28,917 bases of DNA. Source: a virus (taxonomy: Duplodnaviria; Caudoviricetes). The stretch is taken from positions 1 to 28,917 of the IMG/VR virus record IMGVR_UViG_3300033412_000052. The stretch is one strand, 5' to 3'. The notes under the pieces were generated by a model. It was not told the origin of the DNA and did not search any database. It saw nothing but the letters and a program-made list of their open reading frames with translations. This document shows positions 1,915 to 21,492 of this stretch, one piece after another; the stretch's first letter is position 1, and every line of letters begins with the position of its first letter. A program made the position numbers and the translations under genes.

Positions 1915-1926
1915 GATGCGATGCTC

Positions 1927-3208: not shown

Positions 3209-3448
3209 TCAGGTGAAAACGCCCGATCCCGCGACCAGGCCGATAAAACAAAAGATCGAGCACGCAAATACAAGCCGCGCCGGCGTCAGGCGAGTCAGCG
3301 CGAATACAACATGGCCAAGGGCCATCCAGTAAAACGCATCGACGAACATTGCCGGCGGATTCCGGAATGCCATGATCCAGCCCACAAAAATCGTGGCGGC
3401 AATGAACGTCACGACCGCCGCCAGCAACCCAAGCGAAACCCTGATCAC
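3209..3448 (-). CDS. Small 3-TM membrane protein (79 aa); holin or exclusion candidate
   Basis: GTG at 3448 overlaps the tailspike TGA (GTGA). Three hydrophobic helices in VIRVSLGLL...GSGVFT. Confidence 0.55.
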   Translation of the reverse strand: MIRVSLGLLAAVVTFIAATIFVGWIMAFRNPPAMFVDAFYWMALGHVVFALTRLTPARLVFACSIFCFIGLVAGSGVFT

Positions 3449-5661
3449 GGGATCTCTCCGCTGCATGTGCCGCCTCCGGCAATACCCGGGCACATCAGAG
3501 CCCCTCGAATAGTTCCGGTGTAGTCGGTGCCGCCGGTCTGCCCGTTCAGGATCGTCTTTGGGCAACCCGTCGCCACGTTCAGAAATACCGTATTGCTAGG
3601 AATGTTCGTGCCGGAGAGTGTGATCGCTTGCGTGCAACTGTTGCTGTTCTGCTGCACATTTTGATAGATCGAGGTATTGCCGGCCGTCGCGTTGTTCATC
3701 AAGAGACCGGTGCCGAACTGCTCCACGTCCAGCGTATTGACGACCATGCGGCCGGAGTTAATGGCGATAGCCGTGGCACTCGGACACCCCGTACCACCGC
3801 AGCCAATTGTCGATTCCCGCAAGCCGAAGTGAGTTGACGATGCGTTGAACACCATCGCCGTCGCCGTCGATCCCTGGTTGAGCTCGCAATCGATATTGTT
3901 GAGGAGAGCATTTGCCGCGCCACCCCAGCCGGTATTGTAGCGGAAACAGCCCTCGCCCGTAGGCTGGATGAGCACATTTTCGACGAGAGTCTGCTGCTGC
4001 CCATTCTCGGAATAAACCATCGCGTCAGTCGTCGTGACGTTCACATTGTCCGAGAAAAGCGTCATGTCGCTGATGCGACAACCAAACTGCCCGATATGAT
4101 AGGTGATATCGCAAAGCGTGATGAAGTTGATGCCAGTCGTGTCGGCCTTGCAGCGCTTGAGCATGGTCGAGACTACGCCCTGTCCGGACAGCCAAACACC
4201 CATAGGAACATTCAGGCCACCGCAGACCATGAAATTTCCAGGCGTAACAATGATCTTCGCGCCGGTCGTTGAGCCATTGCCGGGCGAATGACTATCGTTC
4301 TGATATGCCGCATAGAAAGCGTTCAAGAACGCCGACTGATTGTTCGTTGCACCAGCATCGTTGACGCCGAGCACCCAATCGGCCTTCGCGCCGAACTGCT
4401 TCACATTGAAGTAGTTCCCGGAATCGGTTGTGATCTGCCACTTGTTCGAACCCGTATCCGTGAAACTTCCGGATGGAGTCGTCAGACCATTGACCGTCCA
4501 GGTAAACCCCGAGCCAGTACCGCCAATGAAGCTATTTGGCGTGGTCAGGACATCGCCGCTTTTGTAGTTCGTGCATGGTGCGCCGCGGCTCACCGAAGTC
4601 ACCGCACCGCCCGAAACTGCGACAAAAGCAAAACAGTTAGCGCCGCTTCCACCGGTCAGCGGGACCGTAAAATAGTTTCCGTTCGTATAGCCGGAGCCGC
4701 CGACCAGGACGGCCGACGAAATGTTCGTGTCCCGAAACTGCACGCCGCCAGCGAGTTTTTGGAACATCGCGCCGCCGCCGTCGCCAGGCGACGCATAGCC
4801 CTGCGTCTGCACCGCCGAGAAGGCCGACAGGTTCAGCGTCGCGGCTGTCGCGCGCGAGGGCAGCACCGGGATAAACCCGCACTGCCAACCGGTGCCTGTC
4901 ACCCATTGGGTGAAAGAGTAGAGCGCCGAGCACGATGCGACCGCAAGATCCGTGGTGGTGGTGCCATTGACCGAGCCCTTGACGGTATTGGCTGCGCCCG
5001 TCGACAGATCGCTATTCGAGACCGCGGCGAAGGACGGCGCCCCAGCTGCGTTGCCGTGGAGAACCGTCGTCGTCGTGCCGAGCCCAACCGGCGTCGAGGG
5101 TGCCGCGCCGGCGCCGCCGCCGAGCACCAGCGCGTTCGCGGTCAGCGCGGCGGAGGACGCCATTGCCGAGGTGCTCGAGAAGTACGGAATGCCGCCCGAC
5201 GTCACCGAGCCAGGCAGCGAGAACGCCGCCCAGGATGGCGCCGCGCTCGAGCCCGAGAGCAGAGGCCGCGACGCGTTCGCAGTGCCGGCCAAAATCGCGC
5301 AGGCCGACGCCGTCGAATAGAGGACGCCGCCATTGGAAGCGGTCAGCGCCGCATTGCAGCCGCCGCCGGACAGCCCGAGGATCGCATAGGACGGATCGCC
5401 GCCGGCACCGCCCGAGACCAGGGCCAGGCCCGCGGTGCCGGGCAAAATCAGACCCCACGCGCTCGCCCCGCGCTCGATCAGCGCGCCCCGCGTCGATCCG
5501 AGAGCGCGATCCAGGATCGCCGTCACCGTCTCCGACTTGGCCGGCGCCCGCGTCGCGGTTGAATTGCCCCACACCTGTCCGGAGCCGACCATCGCTTGCC
5601 CGAACGCTGCCGCCGGCAACAAGAAAGCCGCCAGCGCGGCCAGAACCCTAAGCATTTTCAT
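3445..5661 (-). CDS. Tail fibre/tailspike with C-terminal pectate-lyase-like beta-helix (depolymerase-type receptor-binding protein); N-terminal signal peptide
   Basis: Gly/Ala/Ser fibre repeats, then FNVKQFGAKAD...NQSAF..AF...IIVTPGNF (Pectate_lyase_3-like helix start). Begins MKMLRVLAALAAFLLPAAAFG. 18 Cys. Confidence 0.8.
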   Translation of the reverse strand: MKMLRVLAALAAFLLPAAAFGQAMVGSGQVWGNSTATRAPAKSETVTAILDRALGSTRGALIERGASAWGLILPGTAGLALVSGGAGGDPSYAILGLSGGGCNAALTASNGGVLYSTASACAILAGTANASRPLLSGSSAAPSWAAFSLPGSVTSGGIPYFSSTSAMASSAALTANALVLGGGAGAAPSTPVGLGTTTTVLHGNAAGAPSFAAVSNSDLSTGAANTVKGSVNGTTTTDLAVASCSALYSFTQWVTGTGWQCGFIPVLPSRATAATLNLSAFSAVQTQGYASPGDGGGAMFQKLAGGVQFRDTNISSAVLVGGSGYTNGNYFTVPLTGGSGANCFAFVAVSGGAVTSVSRGAPCTNYKSGDVLTTPNSFIGGTGSGFTWTVNGLTTPSGSFTDTGSNKWQITTDSGNYFNVKQFGAKADWVLGVNDAGATNNQSAFLNAFYAAYQNDSHSPGNGSTTGAKIIVTPGNFMVCGGLNVPMGVWLSGQGVVSTMLKRCKADTTGINFITLCDITYHIGQFGCRISDMTLFSDNVNVTTTDAMVYSENGQQQTLVENVLIQPTGEGCFRYNTGWGGAANALLNNIDCELNQGSTATAMVFNASSTHFGLRESTIGCGGTGCPSATAIAINSGRMVVNTLDVEQFGTGLLMNNATAGNTSIYQNVQQNSNSCTQAITLSGTNIPSNTVFLNVATGCPKTILNGQTGGTDYTGTIRGALMCPGIAGGGTCSGEIP

Positions 5662-6107
5662 CAGATCACCGCATAACCACCAGTTTCGGGCTTGAACGTC
5701 TTGGCGTCGAAATCGCTGGCAATCGGATACGTCGTCAGCCCATCGATCGTATCGGCGCCATTACGCACAACGCTAATCGGGTTGGCCTGCGCGTGCCCGG
5801 TCGAATCCTTCACCTCGATCGGCAGATTGCTGCGCGCACTCGCCGCCATCATGTTGATCGTGATCGCGCCGCCCGCCGTGTCCACCAGGAGAAGATAATC
5901 GGTCGCCAACACCGTGTAGGGCGACATCGCAAAATTGACGAGCGTCGGGACAATTGCCGGTGGCTTGAGCGCATTGGCCACGATCTCGGCCTGCACCTGC
6001 TCGATCGCATTTTGCACATTGCGCGCAGTCAGAGGCGCCACCGGCGAATATGTGATTTCCCGCGCCGAAGGACGCGTATCCCGTAAATCCGTGCGAACAA
6101 CAGACAT
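5661..6107 (-). CDS. Tail fibre-associated adaptor-like protein (148 aa)
   Basis: ARNVQNAIEQV fibre motif and YTVLATDYLLLVDTAGGAITI...VKD..G.A..NPI.V...G.DTIDG beta-domain typical of phage fibre proteins. TGATG overlaps on both sides. Confidence 0.7.
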   Translation of the reverse strand: MSVVRTDLRDTRPSAREITYSPVAPLTARNVQNAIEQVQAEIVANALKPPAIVPTLVNFAMSPYTVLATDYLLLVDTAGGAITINMMAASARSNLPIEVKDSTGHAQANPISVVRNGADTIDGLTTYPIASDFDAKTFKPETGGYAVI

Positions 6108-7186
6108 CAGAGCACCCGCAGATAATAATTGATGCCGATCGTCGGCTGCACAATCGCATGCGCGCCGCCACCGCCAGCCCCCTGAGTCGAAATCCCGGTC
6201 GTATTGTTCGCAATAGTCAGGACTTGAGTGTCTGCTGGGGCGCCATTGTTTTTCCCAAGTTCGGCTGTGGTGGTGACATCGGCGCCGGCGTTACCTTGTA
6301 CACGGCCGAATGATCCGGGATGGCCATGGCCGGGATCATTTATTCCGTGGTTGTGGGCCGGCATTTCAGCGGCCGAAAGCGTGTGGCTTTCGCTGCCGTT
6401 GGCACATGCCGCCCCAACCGACGTCATTGACGTGCCGCAGCCAGTTGCCGAGTTTGTCAGGCGATTGGCCGCCGTGAACCCGCTGGGCTGATCCAGAAGC
6501 ACAGGAACGCGCCCCCGCATGTCGATCACTGCAAACTGCCCACCAGGACAAGAACCGCTCGCCGGCGAGCCCATCAGCGCCCAATAACTCGCATAGGTCG
6601 ACGTCGAGATGCATTGCCCCGCCGGAACAATGAAAGAGCTATTCGGCGGCGCCGGCGCCGTCGACGGCATCAACCCACCGAGCGCGACGTTGTACGGATT
6701 GCCATAGCCGCCCTCAAGTGCCCACGCCGAGCCGGTAAAGCTAACCCTATACGGCGTCCCCGCGACCAGCGTCCCAGCCGGCGCCGCGACGCCGTTCAAT
6801 TGAATTGCATAGGTGTTGCCACTGTCCGCCGTCAATGTCGCGCTCGTCCCGCTCGTCGCATGAGCGAAAAACGCCACCATCGTTCCTGTGACCGGCGTCG
6901 TATTGAGGCCCTCGGAAGTCGTCAACGTGTACGCTGTCGACGTCCCCGCCGTGGTGTTGACGCCCGAAATATCGTTCCGCCAGGCCGCCACCGCCGCCAT
7001 CATGGCGCGCGCGCTATCATTCACCGACGAGGGCGACATGCCCTCCGCCCAATTGATCGTGGGATCGGCCGTTGCGTTTGTCGCTGGAGTCGTCGACCAG
7101 TTCCAGATTGCCGCCGCCGCCGGTGCACCGCCGATCGCCAGCGTCGCCAGAACGAGAAACTCAACAAGCCGAGGGAATCTGCGCAT
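6107..7186 (-). CDS. Tail fibre protein with tail-collar domain (359 aa); N-terminal signal peptide
   Basis: ATG 7186 with AGGAGA RBS. N-terminal WNWS..PA.NATADP.INWAEG..PS.VNDSARAMMA virion-attachment-like motif. Collar motifs GQ.IS...Y..., DMRGRV, GSESHTLS.AEMPAHNH, H..VQPTI..NY. Confidence 0.85.
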   Translation of the reverse strand: MRRFPRLVEFLVLATLAIGGAPAAAAIWNWSTTPATNATADPTINWAEGMSPSSVNDSARAMMAAVAAWRNDISGVNTTAGTSTAYTLTTSEGLNTTPVTGTMVAFFAHATSGTSATLTADSGNTYAIQLNGVAAPAGTLVAGTPYRVSFTGSAWALEGGYGNPYNVALGGLMPSTAPAPPNSSFIVPAGQCISTSTYASYWALMGSPASGSCPGGQFAVIDMRGRVPVLLDQPSGFTAANRLTNSATGCGTSMTSVGAACANGSESHTLSAAEMPAHNHGINDPGHGHPGSFGRVQGNAGADVTTTAELGKNNGAPADTQVLTIANNTTGISTQGAGGGGAHAIVQPTIGINYYLRVL

Positions 7187-7196
7187 TTCGAATCTC

Positions 7197-7946
7197 CTAA
7201 CCGTAACCGTAGAGCTTGGCCACCTGCGCTGCCATGGCCTGCGCCTGCGGATTGGCCTGCGCCATCTGAATCGGCTGCAACTGCATGAACTGCGGCTGAG
7301 CCGGCGGCTGCGGAGCCCCCTGCCCGCCACCCTGACCGCCGGGCATGCCCTGGAATTGCTTGCCGGCAGTCTGCAGGATGCTCGCCGTGGTCGGCGGAGC
7401 CAGCGCGCCAACCGGCGCCGTCAGAGACAGCGGCGCCGAGGCCGCAGCCGCCCCCGTCACAGTCGGATCGATCGGGCTTGTGGGATCTTGCGGAACGGGC
7501 TGTGTCGGCGCCCCACCGTTGAGATATCCGACCACGTTGCGCCTATGCTCCGCCATTTGAGTGTTGACCTTATCGGCCACCGTGCCCGGTGCGCCGCCAT
7601 TCGCCGTGTCGCTGCGATTGTAGAGGCCCGGCGATCCGGCGTTGATGGTCGAATAGATATCCATCATGCCCATGCCAGGCCTGACACCGCGATCGCGCAG
7701 GAAGTTCTCGACCGCCCCCATCTGCTCGACCGCCGACTGCCCGGGCTTCACGCCATATTTTGCCCGTTCCTCGGGACCGAATTGGATGAGGCCTAGATAA
7801 TTGTTGTTTTTGCCTCCCCACAAGCCGGGATCAAATTTCGATCCCGTTTCATAGGAAATAGCCGTGCCGAGATCGACGGGATCGATCCCAAGTCGCTTCG
7901 ATGACGTGATGATGGCCTGCGCCAATTCCGGCGACATACTTGCCAT
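7197..7946 (-). CDS. Virion-associated lytic transglycosylase/lysozyme-like protein with low-complexity Gln/Pro/Ala tail
   Basis: ISYETG.KFDP...YLGLIQFG (SLT-like catalytic Glu + GL.Q motif), IY..INAG. Lies at the end of the ejection protein block. Confidence 0.75.
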   Translation of the reverse strand: MASMSPELAQAIITSSKRLGIDPVDLGTAISYETGSKFDPGLWGGKNNNYLGLIQFGPEERAKYGVKPGQSAVEQMGAVENFLRDRGVRPGMGMMDIYSTINAGSPGLYNRSDTANGGAPGTVADKVNTQMAEHRRNVVGYLNGGAPTQPVPQDPTSPIDPTVTGAAAASAPLSLTAPVGALAPPTTASILQTAGKQFQGMPGGQGGGQGAPQPPAQPQFMQLQPIQMAQANPQAQAMAAQVAKLYGYG

Positions 7947-8467
7947 TATGCCGCCCTCGCAAAAGCACCGAACAATTCGGCTGCTTTTTCTGCATAAGCC
8001 ACCTGCGCAGCCTCAACTGAGACGAACCCACCCAGATAATAACGCACACCATCTTTACAGATGGATGCGCGATATCTCCCGTACCGAAAAATCACCCCCT
8101 TGGTATGCAGAGCATTATTTTTCTGAGCTCTAGTATTTGCTCTATTTTGAGAGCGCGTCGCCAGCCGAAGGTTTAACCACGCATTGTTGGCGCCAACTAC
8201 ATCAGCATGCTCGACAATACTCGACGGCCATTCACTAGTAACCCAGAGCCAAATAATCTGAGATTCCTGAAATATCCGATTACCTACACTAACAAACCGA
8301 TACCCACGATATTCAAATCCGGCCCGCTCACCCGCAAATTGACCGCCGATCGATTTACGTCGATAAAGTGCGCCAGAAACGATGCTATAATCGAAAAGCT
8401 CCCGCACCACAGCGAAGGATGGCCGCGTGCCGCGCACTTTGCTTTTGCCACTCTTCTTCTTCGTCAT
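7946..8467 (-). CDS. Free-standing HNH homing endonuclease with AP2-like domain (atypical HNH motif)
   Basis: ELFDY....G.L, W....EWP...VEH.D....NN...NLRLATRSQN..N, KGV, YYLG.F...E.A..AY...A.ELFG.FAR. Lower GC than neighbouring genes. Confidence 0.85.
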   Translation of the reverse strand: MTKKKSGKSKVRGTRPSFAVVRELFDYSIVSGALYRRKSIGGQFAGERAGFEYRGYRFVSVGNRIFQESQIIWLWVTSEWPSSIVEHADVVGANNAWLNLRLATRSQNRANTRAQKNNALHTKGVIFRYGRYRASICKDGVRYYLGGFVSVEAAQVAYAEKAAELFGAFARAA

Positions 8468-8565
8468 GCTGGCCCTCAAACTAATTGCTATGGCGATCGT
8501 TACTTACGGTGGTCACTTCGCCGCTATCTCCACTATAGCATGCTGCCTCTACACAGCGCACAAGA

Positions 8566-11500: not shown

Positions 11501-11883
11501 GATCCGGCGACGCCGCCCACTACCTTCGCGGCCGTGTCGACGACAGGATGCTGCGCAGCAAACTCCTCATCCATTGCATTCTGCTGCGCCAGCGACTTTG
11601 CCCGCCGCTCCGACCAGGAGCCCTCGAGCCGGTCTTTCTTGTCGAACAACGGGTTGAGGATTGGCGCCAATGTGGCATTCGTCACGGCCTCCGCCTGATT
11701 AAGCAGCCCGCCGACCACCGGAACACCAGTTGCGGCCGAGCGCGCCACCTTGTTTGCCGTCACGCCGCTATCAGCGGCCGGACCGCCGAAATTCTTGGTC
11801 ATCACACCGGAAATCGTCGCCTGATCGGTGCCGTCAGGGAAATCGACGCTTGATCCGTCCGGGCCTTGAACCACGATTGTCAT
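8566..11883 (-). CDS. Large internal virion/DNA ejection protein (1105 aa)
   Basis: N-terminal V.GPDG..V.FPDGT motif. Ala/Gly-rich helical sequence with hydrophobic segments, C-terminal NPSGTA motif. Third ejection gene position in a podovirus layout. Confidence 0.75.
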   Translation of the reverse strand: MTIVVQGPDGSSVDFPDGTDQATISGVMTKNFGGPAADSGVTANKVARSAATGVPVVGGLLNQAEAVTNATLAPILNPLFDKKDRLEGSWSERRAKSLAQQNAMDEEFAAQHPVVDTAAKVVGGVAGSLPAMMAAPKAFGLTGTLREMATRGAASQAALSAADATTRGEDPIHAAEVGGVLGAAAPLVGKGVGRLVQAARDLRSPPVPVAQNVERVAGVDVPLTQGQVSADPAVQAREEIIRRGAAGESAEAVAKAADDEAQRAIGQAREVIGSGLDPTGASARTAPQDAGVAIQAELAQQEQARAAAEAVRGSQAQVEGAQLASDLAGGRAPVSPFDAAGNTGAAVAARRDAAVARTRAAYDARDAVPGTFDESVPQGLAEDIRTRLNSGDNPVWVDPTNESTANKALKLIDETIGKNSGMFRNAASLAPADAAPAAAVKGAPAAAAAAAPSAEDVTVAALRAKFGDSVADAYARQHGIVAAGKSAPRSLLEFIAAKGGLAPHPELEAIGLNQGHRTQVPGQSGFFGTVRKNGENIDRMREAAEEAGYLRGEHGGTSTPTQFLDAIDAELRGQKLYPEGHSGAVSKKAVVAQSAADRSASDRITQGIEEDLRAAGHGELGPQMKERAIALMRDEGMAADDAVETAFRQLEHEDAIAAERAASDFPGDRPLLSPAQQAAAKPVDLRTMDEARKRLVTMYGDAKSAAIRSGDKSDMRAMAKILHEFDNSIEDAIKGGKFSGDAELAQRLQSEARAAHAEYRQTFSSRGPGDEVGRAVEKILGRYSDNAATPEDILKLAYGPESRPGTGNSVKVALRLRNILGENSPEWAQWKQGLFHYVDDASLDPIKRATRIDEFLHSSLGRSSALSATERGQMSRYAQSLRTTAPRAAPANDVERSIARISGADGHPPASPGEVVDMLYSRSGKGDKGFSQRLALALKGRLSPEGWTSVRQGMWEKLTNAGEGKTELGPQALAQRISEFLNESGRPLARVLFTDAEQAEMRKLAGVYRRMVPLKGVTNPSGTAPMLAKIAKKASSHVGAMIGLGAHGLPGALAGEALQRGLGAAREARAGKEAVNLFYGQQPKRVARVNRAPILLRNAVPASQQ

Positions 11884-12377
11884 GACGACCTCGCAAACTC
11901 ACCAAACGACCGCGCCGCAGCCGCCACATACGCCGAATGACCAGATGCCGCATCATCAAACAGGCCAAGACAGGTTTGCCGCCGGTTCACATATATGCGC
12001 GCCAGCCACTTCCCGGATCGCTTGTGAAAGCAAACTCCTTTAAAACCGCTCGTATTATCGGCGCGGATGCTCGTGTTCTGCGAATTCTGCGCTTTCGTCG
12101 CCTCTCGCAAATTGCCCCACCTATTATTCATTTTGTCCAAGTCTTCATGGTCGATGTCGAGCGGATCGCATCCAGTTACCATTTTCCAAATGACGCGATG
12201 GAGTCGATAGCGCGAGCCATCAACACTCACTCGCAGATAGCCGGTACTTGTAACGTCCCCGACGACGCTGCCGGCCGCCATTCTAGCCGCGGCAATTTTC
12301 CTACGCACAACCCCGGTCGCTGGATCGTACGAAAATAACTCAATCAATCGTTCCCGCGCTGGAATCTGTTTCTTCAT
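11880..12377 (-). CDS. Free-standing HNH homing endonuclease with AP2-like domain
   Basis: ATG 12377 overlaps the upstream stop (ATGA). YRLHRVIW...G....DIDHED.DK.NNRW.NLREAT..QN..N, NTSGFKGV.FHK..GKW.ARI, LG.FD....FGEFAR. Confidence 0.92.
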   Translation of the reverse strand: MKKQIPARERLIELFSYDPATGVVRRKIAAARMAAGSVVGDVTSTGYLRVSVDGSRYRLHRVIWKMVTGCDPLDIDHEDLDKMNNRWGNLREATKAQNSQNTSIRADNTSGFKGVCFHKRSGKWLARIYVNRRQTCLGLFDDAASGHSAYVAAAARSFGEFARSS

Positions 12378-14167
12378 TTCGGCACCAGCGCTCCGGTTTT
12401 CGGATCCCACACATACGCGCCGGGCTTCACCGGAGCACCCGCCGTCGGCGCCACGGTCTCACCCGCCGCACGCTTGCGAATCTTCTCCAATTCCTCCGCG
12501 CTATGCTTCTGTACGATCGGAAACTCGGACCCCGCCTCCGACATCATCTTTTTCCAGCCGGCCGGACCGACGCCGTTCTGATATTTGCCTTGCAGCGCGT
12601 TGATCTTCGACTGCATCAATTCGGCTTGTTCGAGGATAGCCGCGCGCCGCGCCTCCGGCGACTGCCCGGGCGTCAGGATGCTGAGAGCTCGATCGATATC
12701 CGATTTGTTGCCGCCCACGCCGCGATAGAACTTCGTGGCCTCTTCCACGAACCGATCCTCGGCCGACTTATAGGCCGCCAGGTCAGGATTGTTTTTGAGC
12801 TCCTCCGCCTTGACGTTCGCCCAATTCACAAGGCCGTTCAGTATCCAGGCCTTGTTCGTGCCACCGAGTTTCTCCGCGAGCTCGCTCATGCGGCCGAGAT
12901 GCTGAATCGCCGTGTTGCCGTTCGTGATGATCGACGCCGGCGAATTCGGACCGCCAGAGGTGAACTCCTTGATAGACGCGGCGCGCGGCGCATAGAGCGA
13001 TGGCCGATAATCCGGATCGGCTTGAGACGCCAGCGCGATCAGGCGCTCACGATTGCCGTTCTTGGCCGAGAGCTTTCCGGGATCAAGGTCATAATTGATC
13101 AACTGCCGGACCAACTGCCGATCCTGCCCGTCCGGAATGGCGCTGAGAAACTCATCGCCAGTTTTCCCGGCCGCAGCCGCCTCGGCCGCAGGATCATGAG
13201 CCGGCCCCGACTGCCCGGGCAGCGGCCGCAGCGTGCCGTCCATCTCGTTTTGCTGCATGAAGGTCTTGCGACCCTGCGCGTCCTGACCAGTCTGCACGAC
13301 CTTCCATTTGTCCTTGCCGAGATACTCGCCGAGCAGCGCCTTGACCGCCTCCGGACCGCCGAGCATTGCCGCCTGCACCTCCGCCGGCTTGGCGCCCCTC
13401 GAGGCCAGCAACCGCGCCGTCGCGTTGCCCTGTTGCGCCTGCAACGCCTTGGCCTCGCGATCCTTGAGGATGTTCTGCGTCACCGACATATCGCCGCGCA
13501 GCGCCGCCCCCGCGCCCATCAGCGCCGGCGCGAATCCCTTCAAGCGATCCATGAATGAGGGCTCAACCGCCTGTTGCGCCACTTGTGGAGGCACCAGCGG
13601 CACCGGAGGCCCAGCCGGACCCGGCGCGCGAGACTGCGAACTGACGTCCGTTGGCGTCCCCACCAGCGGAGCCGCAGCCATATCCTGCGCCCGCGTGATC
13701 TTCGCAGCCAATTCGGCCGAAGGAGGCACCGGAGGCGAGGCCGGCGCACCAGGAGCGCCAGGCGCGGCCGCGGGAGCGCCGACCGTTGTCGCGCCGAACT
13801 GCGCGAGATTGGGCACCGTTCCGAAAGCCGAACCATCCGGAGCCCCCGCCGGCATCGCGCCGGGAAAACCGGTGCCGGCCGGAGCCTGATCCATCGCCAA
13901 TTGCACGCCGGCGCTGTTGACGTCCGGGATGCCGAAAGGCGCATACGGTGCCGTCTGCCCGCCGCCGAAATTGCGCGTCAGGCCGGCCGCGTTCCGCCGC
14001 GCGGACGCCTCGTTCTCTGCCGCCTGTTTCGCCTCGATATCAGCCCAGATTTTCGCCGGATCGGTCTCTGCAACCTTCGGCACATCGGGGAATGGATTGG
14101 CTGGCGCCGGCGCGAACGGCGCCCCGCCAGTTTGCAGCGAAGAAACAACATCCTCTAGCCAGCCCAT
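12374..14167 (-). CDS. Internal virion/DNA ejection protein (597 aa)
   Basis: Pro/Ala-rich N-terminal half, helical C-terminal half, terminal YVWDPKTG.L motif. Second gene in the ejection block. Confidence 0.7.
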   Translation of the reverse strand: MGWLEDVVSSLQTGGAPFAPAPANPFPDVPKVAETDPAKIWADIEAKQAAENEASARRNAAGLTRNFGGGQTAPYAPFGIPDVNSAGVQLAMDQAPAGTGFPGAMPAGAPDGSAFGTVPNLAQFGATTVGAPAAAPGAPGAPASPPVPPSAELAAKITRAQDMAAAPLVGTPTDVSSQSRAPGPAGPPVPLVPPQVAQQAVEPSFMDRLKGFAPALMGAGAALRGDMSVTQNILKDREAKALQAQQGNATARLLASRGAKPAEVQAAMLGGPEAVKALLGEYLGKDKWKVVQTGQDAQGRKTFMQQNEMDGTLRPLPGQSGPAHDPAAEAAAAGKTGDEFLSAIPDGQDRQLVRQLINYDLDPGKLSAKNGNRERLIALASQADPDYRPSLYAPRAASIKEFTSGGPNSPASIITNGNTAIQHLGRMSELAEKLGGTNKAWILNGLVNWANVKAEELKNNPDLAAYKSAEDRFVEEATKFYRGVGGNKSDIDRALSILTPGQSPEARRAAILEQAELMQSKINALQGKYQNGVGPAGWKKMMSEAGSEFPIVQKHSAEELEKIRKRAAGETVAPTAGAPVKPGAYVWDPKTGALVPK

Positions 14168-15271
14168 CTATGCCGCCCTCGCCAATGCGCCGACCCGAGC
14201 CGCGGGCGCCAGCGCCCTGCCATAGTCGACATGCTTCATGCCGCCGATCTCGCGCACCGCATCCGGGTCGCGCCGCTCGACCTCCTGCGCCATGAGGCCG
14301 ATTTCGGTTTTCGGCGACCCCTTGTAGCGGAACGAATAGACGTTCTGCCCATCATGCAGCGCGCCGACCTTGCGCACGTCGGTTTTCGCGCGCCGGTCCG
14401 ACAGCGCCATGAGCGAGCCAAGGCCACTGAGCCAGGAGCCGCCGAGTTGCGTGCCCTGAGACAGCGAGCTCATCAGCGAAGGCGTCGACGTCTGCGTGCC
14501 CTGCGACGTCCCCGACGAGGTGGTGCCGAGACCCGCCAGCGCCGTCGACGGCTGCAACAGCGCCGAGAGATTGGCATAGGGCAGCGAATAGGCCGCATTC
14601 GCCGCGCCGAGTTGCGCCAAGCCGCCGCCGGTCGCCAGCCCGGGGATCGATCCGGCGGCCGTCAGACCGGCAACGCCGTTCGTGAGCCCCTGCTGATTCA
14701 GTGCATTGATGCCAGTCGCAGTATTGTTCGCCCCCGACATCAGCGCGCTATTCGCGTTCATCAGGTTTCCGACGTTCGCATTGAACTGGCTCGCGATCGT
14801 CGGCGAGATGCCCTGCGTAATGCCGCGGCCGAGCGACTGCGCAAACGAACCCGCGCCCGACGGATCGCGCCCCGACCCGGCATAGACACCCTTCACCGCG
14901 TTCGTTGTGTCGGCGATCGCTGTCTTGATCGCGTCCGAGAAACCGGGCGTGTCATAGGGATTCGTGCTGCCGCTCGCGATCGGCGAGAGGTTGGCCTTTT
15001 GCGTGTCATAGGCGGTCTGCAACATGCCGACTTGCGGCGCCGTGTTCGTGTTGAACAGATTGCTGATCGCCGTCGACGCCTGCGGCACGAAGTTCGGCAA
15101 ATTGGAGGTGGCTTGGTTCAGATTGGCCAGCGCGGTCGACTGCTGCCCCGTGACATCAGTGCTCTGATTTCCATATTTCGAAATCAGATTGTTCACCAGC
15201 GGCAACGCCGCCGCCCACGGCTGCGATTGGCTGCTCTGCGTTTGCTGCGTCGTCGATGTGCTATCGGTCAT
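14168..15271 (-). CDS. DNA ejection/pilot protein with C-terminal peptidase S74 (intramolecular chaperone) domain
   Basis: Ser/Thr/Gln N-terminus (STSTTQQTQSS..PW), NPY motif, and C-terminal SDRRAK.D...VG....G..VY.FRY.......IGLMAQEVE...PDAV....G.K.VDY. Confidence 0.8.
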   Translation of the reverse strand: MTDSTSTTQQTQSSQSQPWAAALPLVNNLISKYGNQSTDVTGQQSTALANLNQATSNLPNFVPQASTAISNLFNTNTAPQVGMLQTAYDTQKANLSPIASGSTNPYDTPGFSDAIKTAIADTTNAVKGVYAGSGRDPSGAGSFAQSLGRGITQGISPTIASQFNANVGNLMNANSALMSGANNTATGINALNQQGLTNGVAGLTAAGSIPGLATGGGLAQLGAANAAYSLPYANLSALLQPSTALAGLGTTSSGTSQGTQTSTPSLMSSLSQGTQLGGSWLSGLGSLMALSDRRAKTDVRKVGALHDGQNVYSFRYKGSPKTEIGLMAQEVERRDPDAVREIGGMKHVDYGRALAPAARVGALARAA

Positions 15272-15684
15272 ATTGATTTTTCCAGTTGCACAGTCCGAAC
15301 CCGATATCCCTCATCGCCGAGCACGCGCTCCCAACCGCGCCGCCCCTGGATGATCGTTCTAACACAGCCCTCCGCCTTCGCGTAGGCCTCGAGCCGGCCG
15401 ATGAAATGCAGCCAATTCGCCATGTGCTCACCCGAGCATTGACAGATCCAGCACACGAGGCCGCCGCGCATCGGCACCAGTCGCGTCGTCGCCACCGAGA
15501 CGATGTTCGCCGTCTCCTGCTCCGCCGCACACCACACCACAACTTTTGCCGCTTTCACGTCGTCGAGGAAATCGTCCGGCATGAGCGACGCGCCGGCATC
15601 GAACCCGCGCTCGAGCATCGGGCGCAACACGCCCCACATCGCGACGACGGCATCAGGAGGAAGCGCAGCCAGACCAATTCCCAC
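15268..15684 (-). CDS. GNAT-like phage protein (138 aa)
   Basis: GTG 15684 with GGGAGG RBS. GE.M..W......LE.YAKAEGC......GRRGWERVL...GY motif, typical of the gene preceding podoviral ejection proteins. Confidence 0.7.
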   Translation of the reverse strand: MGIGLAALPPDAVVAMWGVLRPMLERGFDAGASLMPDDFLDDVKAAKVVVWCAAEQETANIVSVATTRLVPMRGGLVCWICQCSGEHMANWLHFIGRLEAYAKAEGCVRTIIQGRRGWERVLGDEGYRVRTVQLEKSI

Positions 15685-15685
15685 A

Positions 15686-16000
15686 TCAGCCTCCCGTGAC
15701 CGTATATCCAAAGGTCCGCGCCGCGCCCGATGCACTATGCGTGATCGTAAACGAACCATTTGAGACCGCCGACACATAGACTGTACCAGCCCCCATCTCC
15801 GCCGCCGCCGCCGCGTTTCGCGCCGTGATCTGCGGCGAGCAATCGGCGCCGCAGTTTGGATGGCTGACCACCGTCGTCGTCGCCGCACCCGTGGCCAGCG
15901 TCACCGTGCCCGCAGCATTGTGTCGGCCCTCGACAAGCTGAATCACCGCCTGCACGATGCGCCAGATTGCCGTTTCAGTCGGGAGGAGTTGGATGGCCAT
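15686..16000 (-). CDS. Small putative tail structural protein (104 aa)
   Basis: G..NA.GTVTL..GA..T.V...... and G.FTITH......RTF.Y beta-rich motif. Located in the tail module. Confidence 0.7.
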   Translation of the reverse strand: MAIQLLPTETAIWRIVQAVIQLVEGRHNAAGTVTLATGAATTTVVSHPNCGADCSPQITARNAAAAAEMGAGTVYVSAVSNGSFTITHSASGAARTFGYTVTGG

Positions 16001-16001
16001 C

Positions 16002-17639
16002 CTATTTGCCCTGCGCCTTCGCCAACGATTTCAAATATGCCTGATAGAGTGACGGATAATCCTCCTCGATCTTGAGGATTTCATGCGACTCCGGCTTCCA
16101 CCCCTCATTGATGACGCGCCCATTACCCATCTCGCGCGTCGCCGAATTCGGGACCAGATAAACCGTGTCGCCAGCCTTCGGAGCAAGTTTTTGATCAACG
16201 ATGTTTCGGGGCGCGCCACCACGATACGGCGGCATAGTATTGACATTCCCGCTTTTTCTGAATCCATCCGCGGCGATCCGTGATGCGATCTCATCCGCAT
16301 TGCCACCAACGCGCCCGCGCAAATCAAGATGCTGACTGTATCGGTCATAAAATTGCTTTTCGGTAAGCGGCTTCTGCGGAATCGACATTTGCGGACCTCG
16401 CGATGCTGCAGCGCCCTCCAATGACCCAACTCTACCACCACCGAACAGCCGCGACATGATCGGCCGCGCATCCATGCCGGCCGTCTCCCACGGCGGTTTC
16501 GCCTTGAGCTCTGCCGGCGTCATGTCGCGCCGCGCCTGCACGTTGCGCGCCTCGATCTCGCCGGGCAATTCATAATAAAGCTGCCGCGGCGTGAACCCCG
16601 ACACGCTCTTATCTGTGCCATAGAGTTCCATCACCTTTTGCAGCGTCTCCGCTGGATTACCTTCGACATCGTGCGCGACAGATCGCGCCTCCTGCGATGG
16701 AAACCAGTCCGGCGCGCCAGCATCCTCATAGCGCTTGCGGATAATCTCGTCCTTTTGCTTTGGCGTCAGTTTGGGATCCAGCCCCTCGAGTTCGCGCCGA
16801 TAAGACAATGCTGAGCGCGCCAATTGCGCATCATCGGACTGCGAGAACATCGAGGGACTGCCGCCACTGGCAAACCCCTCGCGCTCCTGGATGGCGTGCT
16901 GCACCTCATGGAGGGCGACAGACCGAGCGGCCGGCGCGTTCGGCGCCTGTATATTGATCTGCTCATCACGTCCAAAGGTGCGCGCGTCACCATGCGCACG
17001 GGGCTGATATGACCCACCCTCACCAGCCGTCTTTTCCGTCATGCCGGTAATCCGACGCAAGTCCGGATAGGCTTGATAGAGCGGCTTATGCCAGAGTTGC
17101 CCAGCGATCGGGCTCATGTCCCCATTCGGCAGGCCGTTATCATGCCAACTCTGATTCATCTGCGAATGATAGTCGGGAATCTCAAATCGCCACTTGTCAT
17201 CGCCGCCCTTAAACCAGCCGGTTTGATCCCAGATCGCCTTGCGGCCGGCGCCGGCGGCATGCATTTCCTCCGCCTTCGCCAGCGCACCCCGATCGGCCGT
17301 AGCCGCAAGGCGCCCACCAAACACCCCGACCGCTCCCGACGGCGCGAACGGCGTCGACGCACCAGCCAGATTCAGCGCGGCACCGGCACCCCAATCCCGT
17401 GCTCCCTTCTCGCGCGTGTCCTCATAATAGTGCCACTCCTCGCTCCCATACGGATAGGGATTGGCCTGCGAAAGCTGCGCGGGCCCGCGCACCGTGTCGA
17501 CTGCACCTTTCGCCGTGTTGAGCAGCACCTTGACCAGCGCCTGCCCGAGTGGCCCCTGATAGGTCTCCGGCGACATGGCTTGCTCATCCGGCGAAAGATC
17601 GCCAGGACCGCCGACCATGCCAAACGGAATATCGGCCAT
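16002..17639 (-). CDS. Polyvalent protein: LPD23-like domain + HExxH zincin metallopeptidase-like domain + uncharacterised C-terminal domain
   Basis: IWDQTGWFKGGDDKWRFEIPD (LPD23-like), H..LY.AYPDL, SVALHEVQHAIQEREGFASGGS, Y..LPGEIEARNVQAR. Start is ATG 17639 or GTG 17642, overlapping the nozzle stop. Confidence 0.8.
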   Translation of the reverse strand: MADIPFGMVGGPGDLSPDEQAMSPETYQGPLGQALVKVLLNTAKGAVDTVRGPAQLSQANPYPYGSEEWHYYEDTREKGARDWGAGAALNLAGASTPFAPSGAVGVFGGRLAATADRGALAKAEEMHAAGAGRKAIWDQTGWFKGGDDKWRFEIPDYHSQMNQSWHDNGLPNGDMSPIAGQLWHKPLYQAYPDLRRITGMTEKTAGEGGSYQPRAHGDARTFGRDEQINIQAPNAPAARSVALHEVQHAIQEREGFASGGSPSMFSQSDDAQLARSALSYRRELEGLDPKLTPKQKDEIIRKRYEDAGAPDWFPSQEARSVAHDVEGNPAETLQKVMELYGTDKSVSGFTPRQLYYELPGEIEARNVQARRDMTPAELKAKPPWETAGMDARPIMSRLFGGGRVGSLEGAAASRGPQMSIPQKPLTEKQFYDRYSQHLDLRGRVGGNADEIASRIAADGFRKSGNVNTMPPYRGGAPRNIVDQKLAPKAGDTVYLVPNSATREMGNGRVINEGWKPESHEILKIEEDYPSLYQAYLKSLAKAQGK

Positions 17640-19351
17640 CACATCACCCCCGCCGCATCCGCCACCGGCTGCACACCGCGCGCATAGGTCCAGACAGCGC
17701 CATACGGCGCGCGTAGCCGCGCCTTGATATACCGATCCTCGATGGTGAAATTCGCCGCCCCGAAGATATTGAGCGCCGATTCACTTGTGTAAGTCATGGA
17801 TGCCTGCGCCGTCGCGCGATGCCCGAGCGAAATCAGCGCGGCCGCGCAATCCGTCACCGGCCGCACGGTATCCACAAATGCCATCACCCCCTCGCCGTCC
17901 TGCTCGCCCGTCTCGAGCAACGCCTCAATGTTCGGCCCATTGAAGAATCCGAGCTTGTTTGTTGGACCAACGGCCGCCAGCTGCGCGATCGCCGACGTCG
18001 AGATGCTATCAAGAGAGAACGGCAGCGCATCCAACGACCCGCCGATATTGCCGCCACTGACATAAGCGTGCACGAAGGTCGACCCGATCAGGTCGATATG
18101 CGTCGGATCGATGATCGTGACTTTCCAGGTCCCATTCGCCTCCGTAGTCCCCGTCACGCCATAGACGACAATGAAATTCTGCCCGGCGATCTGATATTGC
18201 GCGTTCGACACCGCATCGAGCGTCAACCGGATCGCACCAGAACCGTTGTTAGCCGCGCCCAGCACCGTCAGTTTGCCCGGTGCGATCGAATCCAGTTGCT
18301 CAAGCGTCAAACCCGGCTTGGCCAGATAGCCGAGATATTTGCCGGACATCGGAATCAGCGTCCACTTGCCGTTTTTCCCGACCGACCAGTCGAAGCAAAG
18401 GATTTTGTCGAAGAGGCCGGCCTGCCCGCCCAGCGATTTATAGGCCCAATATACCCGCGTCGCCTGCGGATCGGCCGCCGCGATCACAAGCTGTAGATTG
18501 GAGCGATCGACATCATCGAAAAAGAATCTGTCGACCCGATCCTTTCCAATCGGCACCGGCTCGCCGCCGGAAACAATAACCTTGAACCCCTGCGCCGAGA
18601 TGAAGAACGTTCGCGTGCCCGCGTTCACAACGCCATACTGCGCAAATAGCGTGTCCTGCGTAGAAATGCGCGTGATCTGGAAAATCGCCGCCGAACCCGG
18701 CGCATAAGTCAGTGTCCTGATTGCCTCGTCCTGGAAAACCACGCCATAGGCGTCGCCACCGGATACCTGATGCGCCGAGCCGCCGTCGGGCAGATCCTGG
18801 AAGTCTGACAGTCCCACACCGGCCGTCCAGGTTTCCGGCCCGTCGAGATCGGACCATTGCACCCGCCGGGCATTGGATAGGAGTCCCGTCAGCATCACGA
18901 ACCGGTTCACGATCGCGATGTGCGCCGACTGCGGCGGAGAGCCGCCGAGATCGATGAACGTCGGGCCCGCCGTCAACACGTACTTCTGCGGCACCGTATT
19001 GGCTTGCACCGCCAACACGAAATCATTGAACTGCGCAAACCGCCAGTTCGCATCCGACGTCAGGCCGGAATAGGCCGCCCCACCCTTGGAGACATCACCC
19101 CATGTGAAAGTAGTGTTATCGAGCAGGTAAAGCCGCGTCGCGGTGCCCGCGAATACCGCGATCGATCCATCGCTACGCCGCGCGAAGAAAAACCCGCGGC
19201 AATCGGCCGGCAGCGCCTGAGTGAAGTCGACGAAATCCTGAAATGGCCCGTAACCATCCCGCCGCGGAACCACGCCTGAGATCAACGACGAAAGATCGGT
19301 GCCGATATCACTGAGATCGGGCTCGAAATCGGGAAAGAGAACCGTGGCCAT
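17639..19351 (-). CDS. Tail nozzle/stabilisation protein (P22 gp10-like beta-propeller) with an inserted beta-domain
   Basis: F..F.PD N-terminus, FAGT...LY, WRFAQF, RVQWS.L...E.W, SDFQDLPDGG, PIG.DRVDRFF. Insert GAANNGSGAIR...GVTGTTEANG.W......IDL.GSTF resembles FCCH-like beta domains. Follows the adaptor. Confidence 0.8.
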   Translation of the reverse strand: MATVLFPDFEPDLSDIGTDLSSLISGVVPRRDGYGPFQDFVDFTQALPADCRGFFFARRSDGSIAVFAGTATRLYLLDNTTFTWGDVSKGGAAYSGLTSDANWRFAQFNDFVLAVQANTVPQKYVLTAGPTFIDLGGSPPQSAHIAIVNRFVMLTGLLSNARRVQWSDLDGPETWTAGVGLSDFQDLPDGGSAHQVSGGDAYGVVFQDEAIRTLTYAPGSAAIFQITRISTQDTLFAQYGVVNAGTRTFFISAQGFKVIVSGGEPVPIGKDRVDRFFFDDVDRSNLQLVIAAADPQATRVYWAYKSLGGQAGLFDKILCFDWSVGKNGKWTLIPMSGKYLGYLAKPGLTLEQLDSIAPGKLTVLGAANNGSGAIRLTLDAVSNAQYQIAGQNFIVVYGVTGTTEANGTWKVTIIDPTHIDLIGSTFVHAYVSGGNIGGSLDALPFSLDSISTSAIAQLAAVGPTNKLGFFNGPNIEALLETGEQDGEGVMAFVDTVRPVTDCAAALISLGHRATAQASMTYTSESALNIFGAANFTIEDRYIKARLRAPYGAVWTYARGVQPVADAAGVM

Positions 19352-19359
19352 CCCATCCC

Positions 19360-20031
19360 TCAGAACTGCATCGCCTTGACGCGGCCGGTCGACTTGACCC
19401 GATTGGCCTCCCCCTTGAGCTCGGAGAATGCATAATACGCCTCACCAGGCGCATCACCATGCGGCGACATCGCAGCCGCCATCTTATCATTGCGCGTGAC
19501 GTGCTTGGCGATTTCGTACTTCGCCCGCGATCGGATCAATCGCTCGGCCTCGTTCGTCCAGGGCGAGCTCGTATCCGAGACGTCCGTCGGCGCCGCAAGC
19601 GCGAGATAGCCGCCGATCGTCAGCACATAGGCGATATCAGGCGCAGGATAGATCGCCAGTTGGTTGCCGTCGTAAATGAAGAACCCCGGCGGCCCCGCAT
19701 ACGTGCCGTTGATCGTCGCGAGATAGAGCGCCTCCGGAACGTCGCGCCCCATCCTATTGTTCGTCGACCCCAGCAGGTAATTGATGAAGTCGATCCGCAT
19801 GAGCAGCGCGATCCGCGCGTCATCCGCAGCCGAATAGATGTATTGCTGCGGAACCGTCGTCAGAGTGAACGGAGTCAGCGGCGCGTTCTCGTTGAACCGA
19901 AAACGCTCCTTCTGATAGGCATTAATCGCCGTGCTCACCGCACTGGCGATCGCGCCATTCGAGAGAAGGTCTTGCCGGTCGCCGAGCTCGAAAGCGATCC
20001 GAGTGTAAAGCGTCGTGAGTGAATCGGCCAT
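19360..20031 (-). CDS. Head-tail adaptor protein (223 aa)
   Basis: L..RIA.EL.R.DL, AI..Y...RF.FNE, G.P..F......L.IYP.PD..Y.L, W..EAE.LIR.RAK motifs. Lies between the head genes and the nozzle. Confidence 0.8.
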   Translation of the reverse strand: MADSLTTLYTRIAFELGDRQDLLSNGAIASAVSTAINAYQKERFRFNENAPLTPFTLTTVPQQYIYSAADDARIALLMRIDFINYLLGSTNNRMGRDVPEALYLATINGTYAGPPGFFIYDGNQLAIYPAPDIAYVLTIGGYLALAAPTDVSDTSSPWTNEAERLIRSRAKYEIAKHVTRNDKMAAAMSPHGDAPGEAYYAFSELKGEANRVKSTGRVKAMQF

Positions 20032-20040
20032 TGCGCCCCC

Positions 20041-20592
20041 TTAACCGAGGGCGGCCAGCCCCTCAAGACGGGCCAGGCGCGCCCAGATCGGATCATCGAG
20101 ACCGGCACTCAAATTGCCGTACCAGATCGAGCCGGCTGCGCTGCATGTGAAGATGATCGACTTACCGGCCGCCAGCGAGAACGAAGCATTGGCCGAAAGC
20201 GCGTTGATCGACTGGCCGGACTGCGGAAAGATCGCCGCCGCGTTCGAGGCCGCCGAATTGATGACCGTCACCTGCATGCCGTCGGTATTGCCGTAGCCCG
20301 CCACGCCGCCAGCTATGCCGGCATTGCACGGCGGCAGCATCACACTATCGGCCGCGGTGCCGACCGTCGTGATGATGTTCACGGCGCTGTTGAGCACTAC
20401 CGCGCTCGTCTGGCCACCGCCGGCAAATGCCGTGATCGACCCCGTGGTCGACGTCCGCAGGAACCCGACCTTCATCACCGAGAATTCGTTCGCCGAATTC
20501 GTGCCGGTCAGATTGACCGCCATGGCGAACGAGGACAGCAGAGCCAGCGCGGCAAGAGCAGGCGCGAAACGATTGATCAATTTCGAGAGCAT
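20041..20592 (-). CDS. Putative head decoration/fibre protein with N-terminal signal peptide (183 aa)
   Basis: GAGGT RBS. MLSKLINRFAPALAALALLSSFAMA-V, then ITA.AGGGQ..A..L....N.ITTV.TAADSV.LP...V.N......IFP..G..IN.L.AN motif seen in phage structural proteins. Confidence 0.7.
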   Translation of the reverse strand: MLSKLINRFAPALAALALLSSFAMAVNLTGTNSANEFSVMKVGFLRTSTTGSITAFAGGGQTSAVVLNSAVNIITTVGTAADSVMLPPCNAGIAGGVAGYGNTDGMQVTVINSAASNAAAIFPQSGQSINALSANASFSLAAGKSIIFTCSAAGSIWYGNLSAGLDDPIWARLARLEGLAALG

Positions 20593-20615
20593 TTCCGACC
20601 TCGTTGAAGTGGATC

Positions 20616-20637
20616 GGAAGAGCCCGCCGGCTCCCCC
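20616..20637 (-). other. Intergenic RNA hairpin (9-bp stem with G-U pairs, no U-tract)
   Basis: Minus strand GGGGGAGCC-GGCG-GGCTCTTCC between two head-module genes. Confidence 0.35.
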
Positions 20638-20652
20638 GCATTGATCCAGGAA

Positions 20653-21027
20653 CTACAGGCCGACGCAAATATATTTAACGACGTTCGAACTCGTCGCCGT
20701 CTGCGTCAGCGTGATCGCCGAGGCCGAGGTTGCATAGGACTGCGAAGCCAGCGGCGTCGCGATCCACGTCACCACGCAATGCGGCGCCGCACTCTTGGCC
20801 GTGTTGAACGTGATCACGCAACCGGTCGGCGTGCCCGTCCCCATCGTGACCGTGCCGGCCAAATCGGTACCGGTGATTGCCGGCGAGGTGCCGCAGGACG
20901 TGAGCGCCGGCGCCGTGGTCGAGCCGAGGCCGAGACCATCGGTCACGATCGTGTAGCCGTAGGCCAGGCCGGCCGTCACCAGCAACGCGGCGAGACCAGA
21001 GACAAGTTTCGTCCAAATCTTCTTCAT
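20653..21027 (-). CDS. Putative virion surface protein with N-terminal signal peptide and 4 Cys (124 aa)
   Basis: ATG 21027 with GAGGGA RBS. MKKIWTKLVSGLAALLVTAGLAYG-Y, then Thr-rich beta domain SCGTSP.I.GTD.AG.VT.GT.....C.ITF......P.C.V...Y.C. Confidence 0.75.
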   Translation of the reverse strand: MKKIWTKLVSGLAALLVTAGLAYGYTIVTDGLGLGSTTAPALTSCGTSPAITGTDLAGTVTMGTGTPTGCVITFNTAKSAAPHCVVTWIATPLASQSYATSASAITLTQTATSSNVVKYICVGL

Positions 21028-21072: not shown

Positions 21073-21492
21073 TTAGGTCAGCCAGCCGCCCTCGTAGAAG
21101 ATCACGACGATAGCCTGCCCCGTGGTCGCCGCGCCGCCGGTTTGCGCGTACATCGCGTAAGGCAGCACGTCGCCGGAGGCCGTGAGCGAGCGGCCGAATG
21201 CCCGCGTCACCTGCGTCACGCCGGTTGCGCCCTCGTTGACATCCGCCGCAGCCACGATGTTGTTGTACGACGTCGCGTTCGTGCCGACCGTCAAGACGTT
21301 GGTTGAACCGGCATTGAACACCGTCACAACCTCGACTAGAACGTTTTCGATGAAAGCGTTCTGCGGCAGGTAATTGTCGAACGGCACACCCGACGCGATG
21401 CCAACATCGTTGAAATTGACAGTCTTCTTCAACGTGTTGACGACTTGGCGCGGATCCTGCCGCGCATTGGTTCCCAGAACACCCGTAGTCAT
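21073..21492 (-). CDS. Capsid decoration/cement-like protein (139 aa)
   Basis: Directly after the capsid gene with GGAGA RBS. LP.NA.I..V.V.V.T.FNAG..N.L.VGT and G.AAT.G.A.V...Y beta-sandwich motif. Confidence 0.7.
   Translation of the reverse strand: MTTGVLGTNARQDPRQVVNTLKKTVNFNDVGIASGVPFDNYLPQNAFIENVLVEVVTVFNAGSTNVLTVGTNATSYNNIVAAADVNEGATGVTQVTRAFGRSLTASGDVLPYAMYAQTGGAATTGQAIVVIFYEGGWLT

Follow-up and report, generated by a model that had tools for sequence, protein, structure and literature searches.

The window analysed here, the whole 28,917-nucleotide stretch of the IMG/VR virus record IMGVR_UViG_3300033412_000052, is the minus-strand late operon of a short-tailed phage, with genes for portal, capsid, adaptor and ejection-type proteins and a lysis cassette. 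Four of its genes encode proteins that begin with a predicted Sec-type leader: a spike-like protein of 738 residues, a collar-type tail fibre of 359 residues and two smaller proteins of 183 and 124 residues (Table 1). A sequence-only reading of the window had proposed that the phage exports these outermost appendages for oxidative folding in the periplasm and adds them to the virion at lysis. Comparison with homologues strongly supports the export and the pairing of the cysteines. Some homologues, however, retain a leader and lack cysteines, so that export must have some reason beyond oxidative folding.

Predicted leaders and cysteine counts in the late operon

Leaders were assigned by a rule-based test, distinct from SignalP, that requires a net positive n-region, an h-region of ten uncharged residues averaging 1.9 or more in hydropathy, and a cut site with small residues. 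Seven of the 28 window genes pass, namely the four above, the gene of a lipobox-bearing 135-aa protein, and a scaffold-like and a holin-like open reading frame (ORF), the last two of which are likely false positives. The background of the test is 10 of 193 window ORFs, each taken from its first start, and 2-12% of shuffles; none of the 139 orthologues of ten core virion genes passes. The four N-termini, all on the minus strand, are as the earlier reading had given them, and each shows, by these rules, a basic n-region, a hydrophobic h-region and small residues at -1 and -3, the features of a Sec leader cleaved by signal peptidase I (SPI), at the true N-terminus. The leaders are strongly hydrophobic (mean 2.2-2.9), contain no cysteine and match neither a twin-arginine motif nor a lipobox, and the mature parts have no segment of transmembrane strength (best 19-residue mean hydropathy 0.9-1.4).

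All four proteins indeed have even cysteine counts (18 in the 738-aa, 4 in the 359-aa, 2 in the 183-aa and 4 in the 124-aa protein), and what had been said of cysteines in the other virion proteins was borne out as well: none in the adaptor, the 139-aa and 148-aa proteins and three ejection-type proteins, five in the portal, two in the capsid protein and three in the nozzle. The description "disulfide-rich" suits the 738-aa (2.4% Cys) and 124-aa (3.2%) proteins but not the other two (1.1%). Similarly, the list of four exported proteins holds for its members but had omitted a fifth, the lipobox-bearing 135-aa protein, as well as the leaderless 104-aa protein with two cysteines. Among the names that had been assigned, that of the collar fibre is backed by profile and fold, whereas "tailspike", "cement" and "head module" rest on position or motif; no family search named the 738-, 183- and 124-aa proteins above its cut-off.

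The collar fibre and its leaderless relatives

The collar fibre is predicted to consist of a leader, an N-terminal helix, a shoulder domain and a T4 gp12-like collar with a needle tip. Its profile, built from 67 sequences, matches the long tail fibre of cyanophage A-1(L) (8KEC, E 1.8e-8) and T4 gp12. In the structural model (predicted local distance difference test, pLDDT, 78), residues 138-334 match T4 gp12 (1OCY), the A-1(L) fibre and the T4 gp37 tip (2XGF), with VIA Z scores of 9.1, 9.0 and 8.6, respectively, and a root-mean-square deviation of 1.8-2.9 over 79-115 residues, whereas residues 43-141 match the Pa193 fibre domain (VIA Z 8.1). No solved structure matches the first 50 residues; the N-terminal helix is, by its position and conservation, the likely docking part. 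PDB sequence searches with the single collar, spike or adaptor sequences gave no match, and PF07484, recorded on 7 of 120 homologues, does not match the window protein. Altogether, the profile matches, the fold matches and the single-copy status described below support a genuine T4 gp12-type tail fibre, as had been proposed. The T4 gp12, T4 gp37 and A-1(L) fibres share its collar and needle-tip fold and are made and attached in the cytoplasm; unlike them, the window fibre has a leader and four added cysteines.

Among the best 120 of 2312 matches to the collar fibre, all 120 carry a leader; 104 have four cysteines and 16 have six, and the four cysteine columns of the window protein are kept in 119. 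The extra cysteines come mostly as one pair (nine together, one alone). Identity to the window protein is 39% in the leader and 74% over the 55 residues that follow. Ala, Ser or Gly stands directly before the cut in 116 of the 120. The leaders are conserved in function rather than in sequence. Many of them have an acidic residue directly before the hydrophobic stretch.

By contrast, none of the 20 collar rows classed as leaderless has a cysteine in the four columns, and in most of them the initial Met lies no more than about five residues from the predicted cut. These include fibres of the cultured phages ppBeUSDA76-2, RHph_Y1_10, KLEP18-1 (gp22) and Mae-JY35, which share with the window fibre the N-terminal region and the place after the ejection genes but are leaderless, have 0-1 cysteines and start at the predicted cut ("tail fibre" being the record annotation). 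The ppBeUSDA76-2 fibre (WAX24428.1) has 39% identity over 75% of the mature window protein. The RHph_Y1_10 fibre gene (L001:42534-43229) reaches the end of its record and is unannotated there, and a further leaderless gene (L035:5989-6003) has a good ribosome-binding site without ATG, GTG or TTG, possibly starting at ATT or ATC. Of the best 30 collar loci in Bradyrhizobium, two have a leader and six cysteines and 28 are leaderless.

Each of the five near-complete relatives of the window phage has a single collar-fibre match. Four of these fibres have the leader and four cysteines, and the fifth (G005) is leaderless and lacks those cysteines, yet occupies the same gene slot, starting two bases after the upstream stop, in a genome whose spike keeps its leader. 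A tree of 44 rows, built from the first 150 mature residues, which precede the four cysteine columns, and rooted at the midpoint, needs 3 changes of state against a mean of 13.8 after shuffling; it omits the leaderless rows L002, L030, L045 and L047 and 98 of the 120 leader-bearing database homologues. G005 and L035 are nested within a well-supported, mostly leader-bearing group, a picture that recombination could also give. Thus, leader and cysteine pairs co-vary across homologues of the collar fibre, and also in the domain family of the 183-aa protein described below, in line with the sequence-only reading. The leader seems to have been added to an older cytoplasmic fibre, and the cysteine pairs to have been gained later.

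A true start downstream of the hydrophobic stretch, which would have undone the case for export, is ruled out for the window collar gene: there is no in-frame ATG, GTG or TTG between codons 2 and 49, and a good ribosome-binding site precedes the leader. As the fibre exists in one copy, its sole copy is made with the leader.

Two Bradyrhizobium genomes contain small integrated elements (G054:C21 ~417-430 kb, L180 and L181; G399:C1 ~1,020-1,038 kb, L183) in which a leader-bearing collar fibre lies next to one or two homologues of ejection proteins and which also carry genes for a recombinase and for excisionase- or primase-like proteins. A scan of 51 ORFs in these elements gave no capsid match except one PHROG label on an ejection-protein homologue; no portal was recognisable, and the nozzle query gave no match, a weak negative as it had no positive control. 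This composition fits satellite-like elements that hitch-hike on helper particles. Two further loci, L035 and L105, have fibre and ejection genes and no nozzle match.

The other leader-bearing proteins and their genomic context

The spike-like protein has a leader in 99 of the best 120 of 1387 matches, with an even cysteine count in 88 of the 99; the median count is 9 in leader-bearing matches versus 2 in the 21 leaderless ones. Among homologues of its N-terminal module, 46 of 47 pass the leader test and 44 have even counts, at lengths from 405 to 1020 residues; in this set, which was chosen on residues 22-260, 46 of 47 cover residues 60-140 and none extends past 260. Such a pattern points to a conserved N-terminal anchor and a variable C-terminus, as in receptor-binding proteins. 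The C-terminal part contains what we take, by eye, to be the start motif of a pectate-lyase-like β-helix; Pfam has no match there, and no β-helix depolymerase domain was found by Pfam, NCBIfam or PDB sequence searches. Against cultured phages, the sole match is a 69-residue stretch of S-PM2.

Directly upstream lies the gene of the 148-aa protein, an order kept wherever both genes are present. The protein has a weak T4 gp9/gp10-like domain and is leaderless in all eight homologues in the loci; it may serve as the cytoplasmic landing piece for the spike. A fused ancestor of the 148-aa protein and the spike is unsupported, the 148-aa domain occurring only inside four leader-bearing fibre-like matches, and a domain shared by the 148-aa and 183-aa proteins was ruled out (hhalign probability 0.4%).

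Among the best 120 of 377 homologues of the 124-aa protein, the window's own protein included, 119 have the leader and all 120 have the four cysteines. Its model is all-β (pLDDT 82) and matches three unnamed viral models at E < 0.001; PDB matches are all at E > 0.1, and Atlas TM values of 0.48-0.58 to gp53-C and H-lectin clusters lie under the naming bar. The same domain also ends a longer leader-bearing fibre-like protein. The leaderless 104-aa protein forms a natural contrast to these fixed four cysteines, with one to four in relatives and an odd number in 6 of 12.

The 183-aa protein has a leader in 12 of its 13 homologues in the loci; the remaining one is truncated at its 5' end. Its domain, with 4744 representatives, is often repeated in leaderless fibre-like proteins. 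In the best 150, both cysteine columns are filled in 5 of 9 members that pass the leader test versus 2 of 141 others; the latter two seem to be partial gene calls, and false leader calls seem to account for two of the nine. Leaderless members commonly have the second cysteine, but the first occurs almost exclusively together with a leader, which would suit the gain of a partner for an old buried cysteine. No cultured phage matched the 124- or 183-aa protein, and PDB searches with profiles of these two proteins and the adaptor gave nothing significant. By gene position and fold, both proteins are candidate virion components.

The phage's IMG/VR relatives have capsid identities of 88-93% and contigs of up to 62-66 kb, and the best cultured capsid match is Rhizobium phage RHph_Y1_10 (51%). 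Three runs containing more than half of the words of the fibre region are soil and rhizosphere metagenomes; no RNA data set is listed among those containing such words. The host is likely Bradyrhizobium-like, because the collar-fibre family is present in 100 of 401 Bradyrhizobium genomes and a leader-bearing member (WP_143270204.1) is assigned to Bradyrhizobium sp. Ghvi. Tyrosine (PF00589) and serine (PF00239) recombinases were found in none of the five near-complete relatives, with positive controls, which would set the exported proteins apart from lysogenic-conversion (moron) genes, although a plasmid-type prophage is still conceivable. Promoter and terminator scans gave results at or below chance.

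Several neighbouring genes deserve mention. The 135-aa lipobox protein has two further cysteines, is conserved in relatives and matches no family, and may be a spanin-type protein; a PHROG match of the 139-aa protein labelled Rz-like spanin is doubted. Alignments to the nozzle run its full length in close relatives, whereas in many distant ones they end near residue 360; this suggests an inserted domain, a possible docking site, at about 17900-18300 (minus strand). Two adaptor paralogues stand in tandem at L010:1248-2605. Just past the window end, between terminase and portal, relatives have a second cluster of genes with leaders (L144:14696-19802 in G001, L147 in G002 and L140:18459 onward in G004), encoding proteins of 119, 270-415, 309 and 748-770 aa, the last with 18-20 cysteines.

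Table 1. Features of the window, with positions on the 28,917-nucleotide stretch
Feature	Position	Strand	Remarks
Collar-type tail fibre, 359 aa	6107..7186	-	Cys192, 213, 250, 261
Predicted 25-residue Sec/SPI leader of collar fibre	7112..7186	-	3' end is the start of leaderless homologues
Spike-like protein, 738 aa	3445..5661	-	18 Cys; leader, conserved N-terminal module, fibre repeats (to ~residue 220), variable C-terminal part
Predicted 21-residue leader of spike	5599..5661	-	Rule-based test
183-aa protein	20041..20592 (leader 20518-20592)	-	One domain copy; Cys89, Cys150
124-aa protein	20653..21027 (leader 20956-21027)	-	Stand-alone all-β fibre-tip-like domain; four invariant Cys
148-aa protein	5661..6107	-	Leaderless; 0 Cys; directly upstream of spike gene; PF07880 E 0.001, below cut-off
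SU10-type adaptor	19360..20031	-	PF24175 over cut-off; leaderless; 0 Cys
Nozzle	17639..19351	-	phmmer match to VP1 nozzle gp16 (8ZKK/8ZKM, E 1e-7); leaderless; 3 Cys
P22-like portal	25815..28196	-	PF16510; leaderless; 5 Cys
Major capsid protein	21520..22635	-	PF13252 (HK97-type capsid family); leaderless; 2 Cys
139-aa protein after capsid gene	21073..21492	-	Cement or vertex base by position only; leaderless; 0 Cys
104-aa protein	15686-16000	-	Leaderless; 2 Cys
Endolysin	2409..3197	-	PG-binding domain and TIGR02594; leaderless
Holin-like 146-aa ORF	1927-2367	-	Lysis cassette (1507..2367); putative role from position and hydropathy
Lipobox-bearing 135-aa ORF	1507-1914	-	Lysis cassette; putative role from position and hydropathy
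546-aa LPD23 protein	16002-17642	-	Inserted after nozzle; present in some relatives, absent from others
Two HNH endonuclease genes	7946-8467, 11880-12410	-	Inserted among ejection genes
86-aa ORF	22976-23236	-	Acb2/Tad1 hairpin domain (PF24729, over cut-off); between scaffold and capsid genes; candidate anti-defence sponge

Proposed assembly in two compartments and competing explanations

Tailed virions are usually finished in the cytoplasm before lysis. Sec export, cleavage by SPI and disulfide formation by Dsb enzymes in the periplasm constitute an established pathway, and leaderless endolysins need large holin lesions. We propose, with a probability of roughly 60%, that the fibre and spike proteins of this phage are exported, fold in the periplasm and dock on a particle built in the cytoplasm once the holin opens the inner membrane. 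The Sec machinery would export the four proteins, and SPI would free the N-terminus at which leaderless relatives start. In the periplasm, the collar fibre, the spike and the other exported proteins would trimerise and form disulfides, with host Dsb enzymes closing the cysteine pairs, and in the cytoplasm the head, portal, adaptor, nozzle, ejection proteins and 148-aa piece would assemble. Because the endolysin is leaderless, large holin lesions would be needed, through which periplasm and particles would mix inside the outer membrane before it breaks. The exported fibres would then dock on the particles at or just after lysis.

The steps of this pathway differ in strength. Export and cleavage of the four proteins are very likely, as predicted from their N-termini and homologues. 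It is likely that host Dsb enzymes make the disulfides; none of the five near-complete relatives has a DsbA-like gene (PF13462), and a Pfam scan of 84 ORFs of G004 named no export or redox gene. The collar fibre probably attaches through its freed N-terminus to the adaptor/nozzle region, where the adaptor is a candidate docking site. We lean towards docking on the particle at lysis. The odds are even that the leaderless 148-aa protein links the spike to the particle, and the 124- and 183-aa proteins have about an equal chance of attaching to the head or not.

Alternatively, the exported proteins might act off the particle, as fibre-derived decoys, lectins or depolymerases, periplasmic or released, whose task would be to block receptors, to keep out other phages or to remove polysaccharide at lysis. 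Extra genes with leaders occur in relatives in variable number, the 124-aa gene is unseen in two relatives (G003 and G004), and lambda Lom is an exported non-virion protein encoded among tail genes (PMC12309495). Lom is an outer-membrane β-barrel of a temperate phage, whereas the window proteins have fibre folds and the relatives no integrase, which argues against lysogenic conversion. The collar fibre speaks most clearly against an off-particle role: its N-terminal region is kept at 74% identity, it is the sole copy of the fibre in all five relatives, a leaderless form fills the same slot in G005, and the capsid-less elements keep it beside ejection proteins. We therefore consider an off-particle role unlikely. 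It is improbable, moreover, that the proteins have two fates, in which a part escapes export through a weak leader or late saturation of Sec, is assembled onto particles in the cytoplasm, its leader staying uncut or being trimmed in that compartment, and has its cysteines oxidised after lysis. The acidic residue in many collar leaders, a Met near the cut site in 12 of the 120 collar homologues and the many disulfides that tailed virions can hold, as in Milano (PMC10811340), would suit such a split. Nevertheless, leader shape and the Ala/Ser/Gly cut site are kept despite wide sequence change, the cysteine pairs track the leader, which oxidation after lysis would not need, and the window collar gene has no second start.

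An uncut leader could also anchor the fibres on the outer face of the inner membrane, where they would wait to be picked up or would tether particles to membrane debris at lysis. The strong hydrophobicity of the leaders agrees with this; however, nearly all homologues keep a small residue at both -1 and -3, and the cut site falls where leaderless forms start, which makes an anchor very improbable. That the leaders are annotation artefacts, with true starts downstream and hydrophobic stretches arising by chance, is largely refuted. The 183- and 738-aa genes do have an in-frame ATG at codon 24, but without a recognisable ribosome-binding site; the leaders are open and leader-like in hundreds of homologues, the collar gene has the start context described above, and the spike start overlaps the upstream stop.

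Partial parallels to the proposed pathway exist in other phages. The cultured Cellulophaga phage phi19:1 (KC821607.1) resembles the window phage in having tail-end genes with predicted leaders: of its 14 record-marked virion proteins, four (gp101-gp104, with 1, 2, 0 and 10 cysteines) pass the leader test and ten fail, the four being virion proteins by tandem mass spectrometry (MS/MS) according to the record annotation. It differs in being long-tailed and having a Bacteroidota host, and its annotation rows do not mention export. In filamentous phages, pIII and pVIII are virion proteins with cleavable leaders, and pIII has disulfides formed in the periplasm, but these coat proteins stay membrane-anchored and assemble during extrusion without lysis. 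The mature window proteins, in comparison, have no membrane anchor and are encoded with a tailed-phage portal, an HK97-type capsid family protein and an endolysin. The rhizobial Agrobacterium phage Milano has disulfide-bonded tailspikes and fibres, with disulfides also through its core parts (PMC10811340), whereas the conserved cysteine pairs of the window sit on leader-bearing proteins.

Several observations weigh against assembly in two compartments. Homologue counts are of related sequences rather than independent events, with only three state changes in the collar tree. The coupling is imperfect: L105, first classed as leaderless, has an upstream hydrophobic stretch while its four cysteines are absent, and leaders without cysteines occur in phi19:1 gp103 and, within the 183-aa family, in L089, P0465 and P0494, which have neither cysteine. 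Because such leaders exist, export probably came first and disulfides after. No leaderless spike N-terminal module at the start of a protein was found among the 120 matches, which leaves the spike without a direct tie to a particle. The capsid genes of G003 and G004 were seen without a neighbouring 124-aa gene, and relatives carry a variable number of additional genes with leaders, both after the spike and in the interval from terminase to portal. No cultured phage with a leader-bearing collar copy turned up in the phage collection, and the MS/MS signal of phi19:1 could be co-purifying protein. Finally, Milano has many virion disulfides, and the main text of its report (PMC10811340) makes no mention of periplasm, export or signal peptides.

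Our literature search, in which subscription journals were thinly covered, found no description of exported tailed-phage fibres. The kinds of fibre are known, and the export route is apparently undescribed for tailed phages. The locus adds the single-copy result, a same-slot leaderless sister phage and satellite-like carriers. It offers an unusually clean test: within one fibre family, forms with leader and cysteines and forms without a leader occupy the same slot, and the leaderless form of the collar fibre is available in a cultured Bradyrhizobium phage.

If the proposal is true, lysis would be an assembly step and infectivity would depend on host Sec and Dsb. The fibres could use disulfides for stability in soil, and they would be hidden from cytoplasmic sensors but open to pick-up by co-infecting phages or satellites. 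Annotation would change as well, because a leader on a phage gene product is commonly taken as the mark of a non-virion protein. More broadly, the assembly of tailed phages may have, at about even odds, an unrecognised second compartment: Sec and Dsb would produce host-recognition fibres and head appendages in the periplasm, and mixing at lysis would complete the infectious particle. The same even odds apply to the leader being a switchable module, acquired and lost by sister phages and satellite-like elements together with the disulfide pairs, and to this assembly extending, apparently, to many soil and marine phages.

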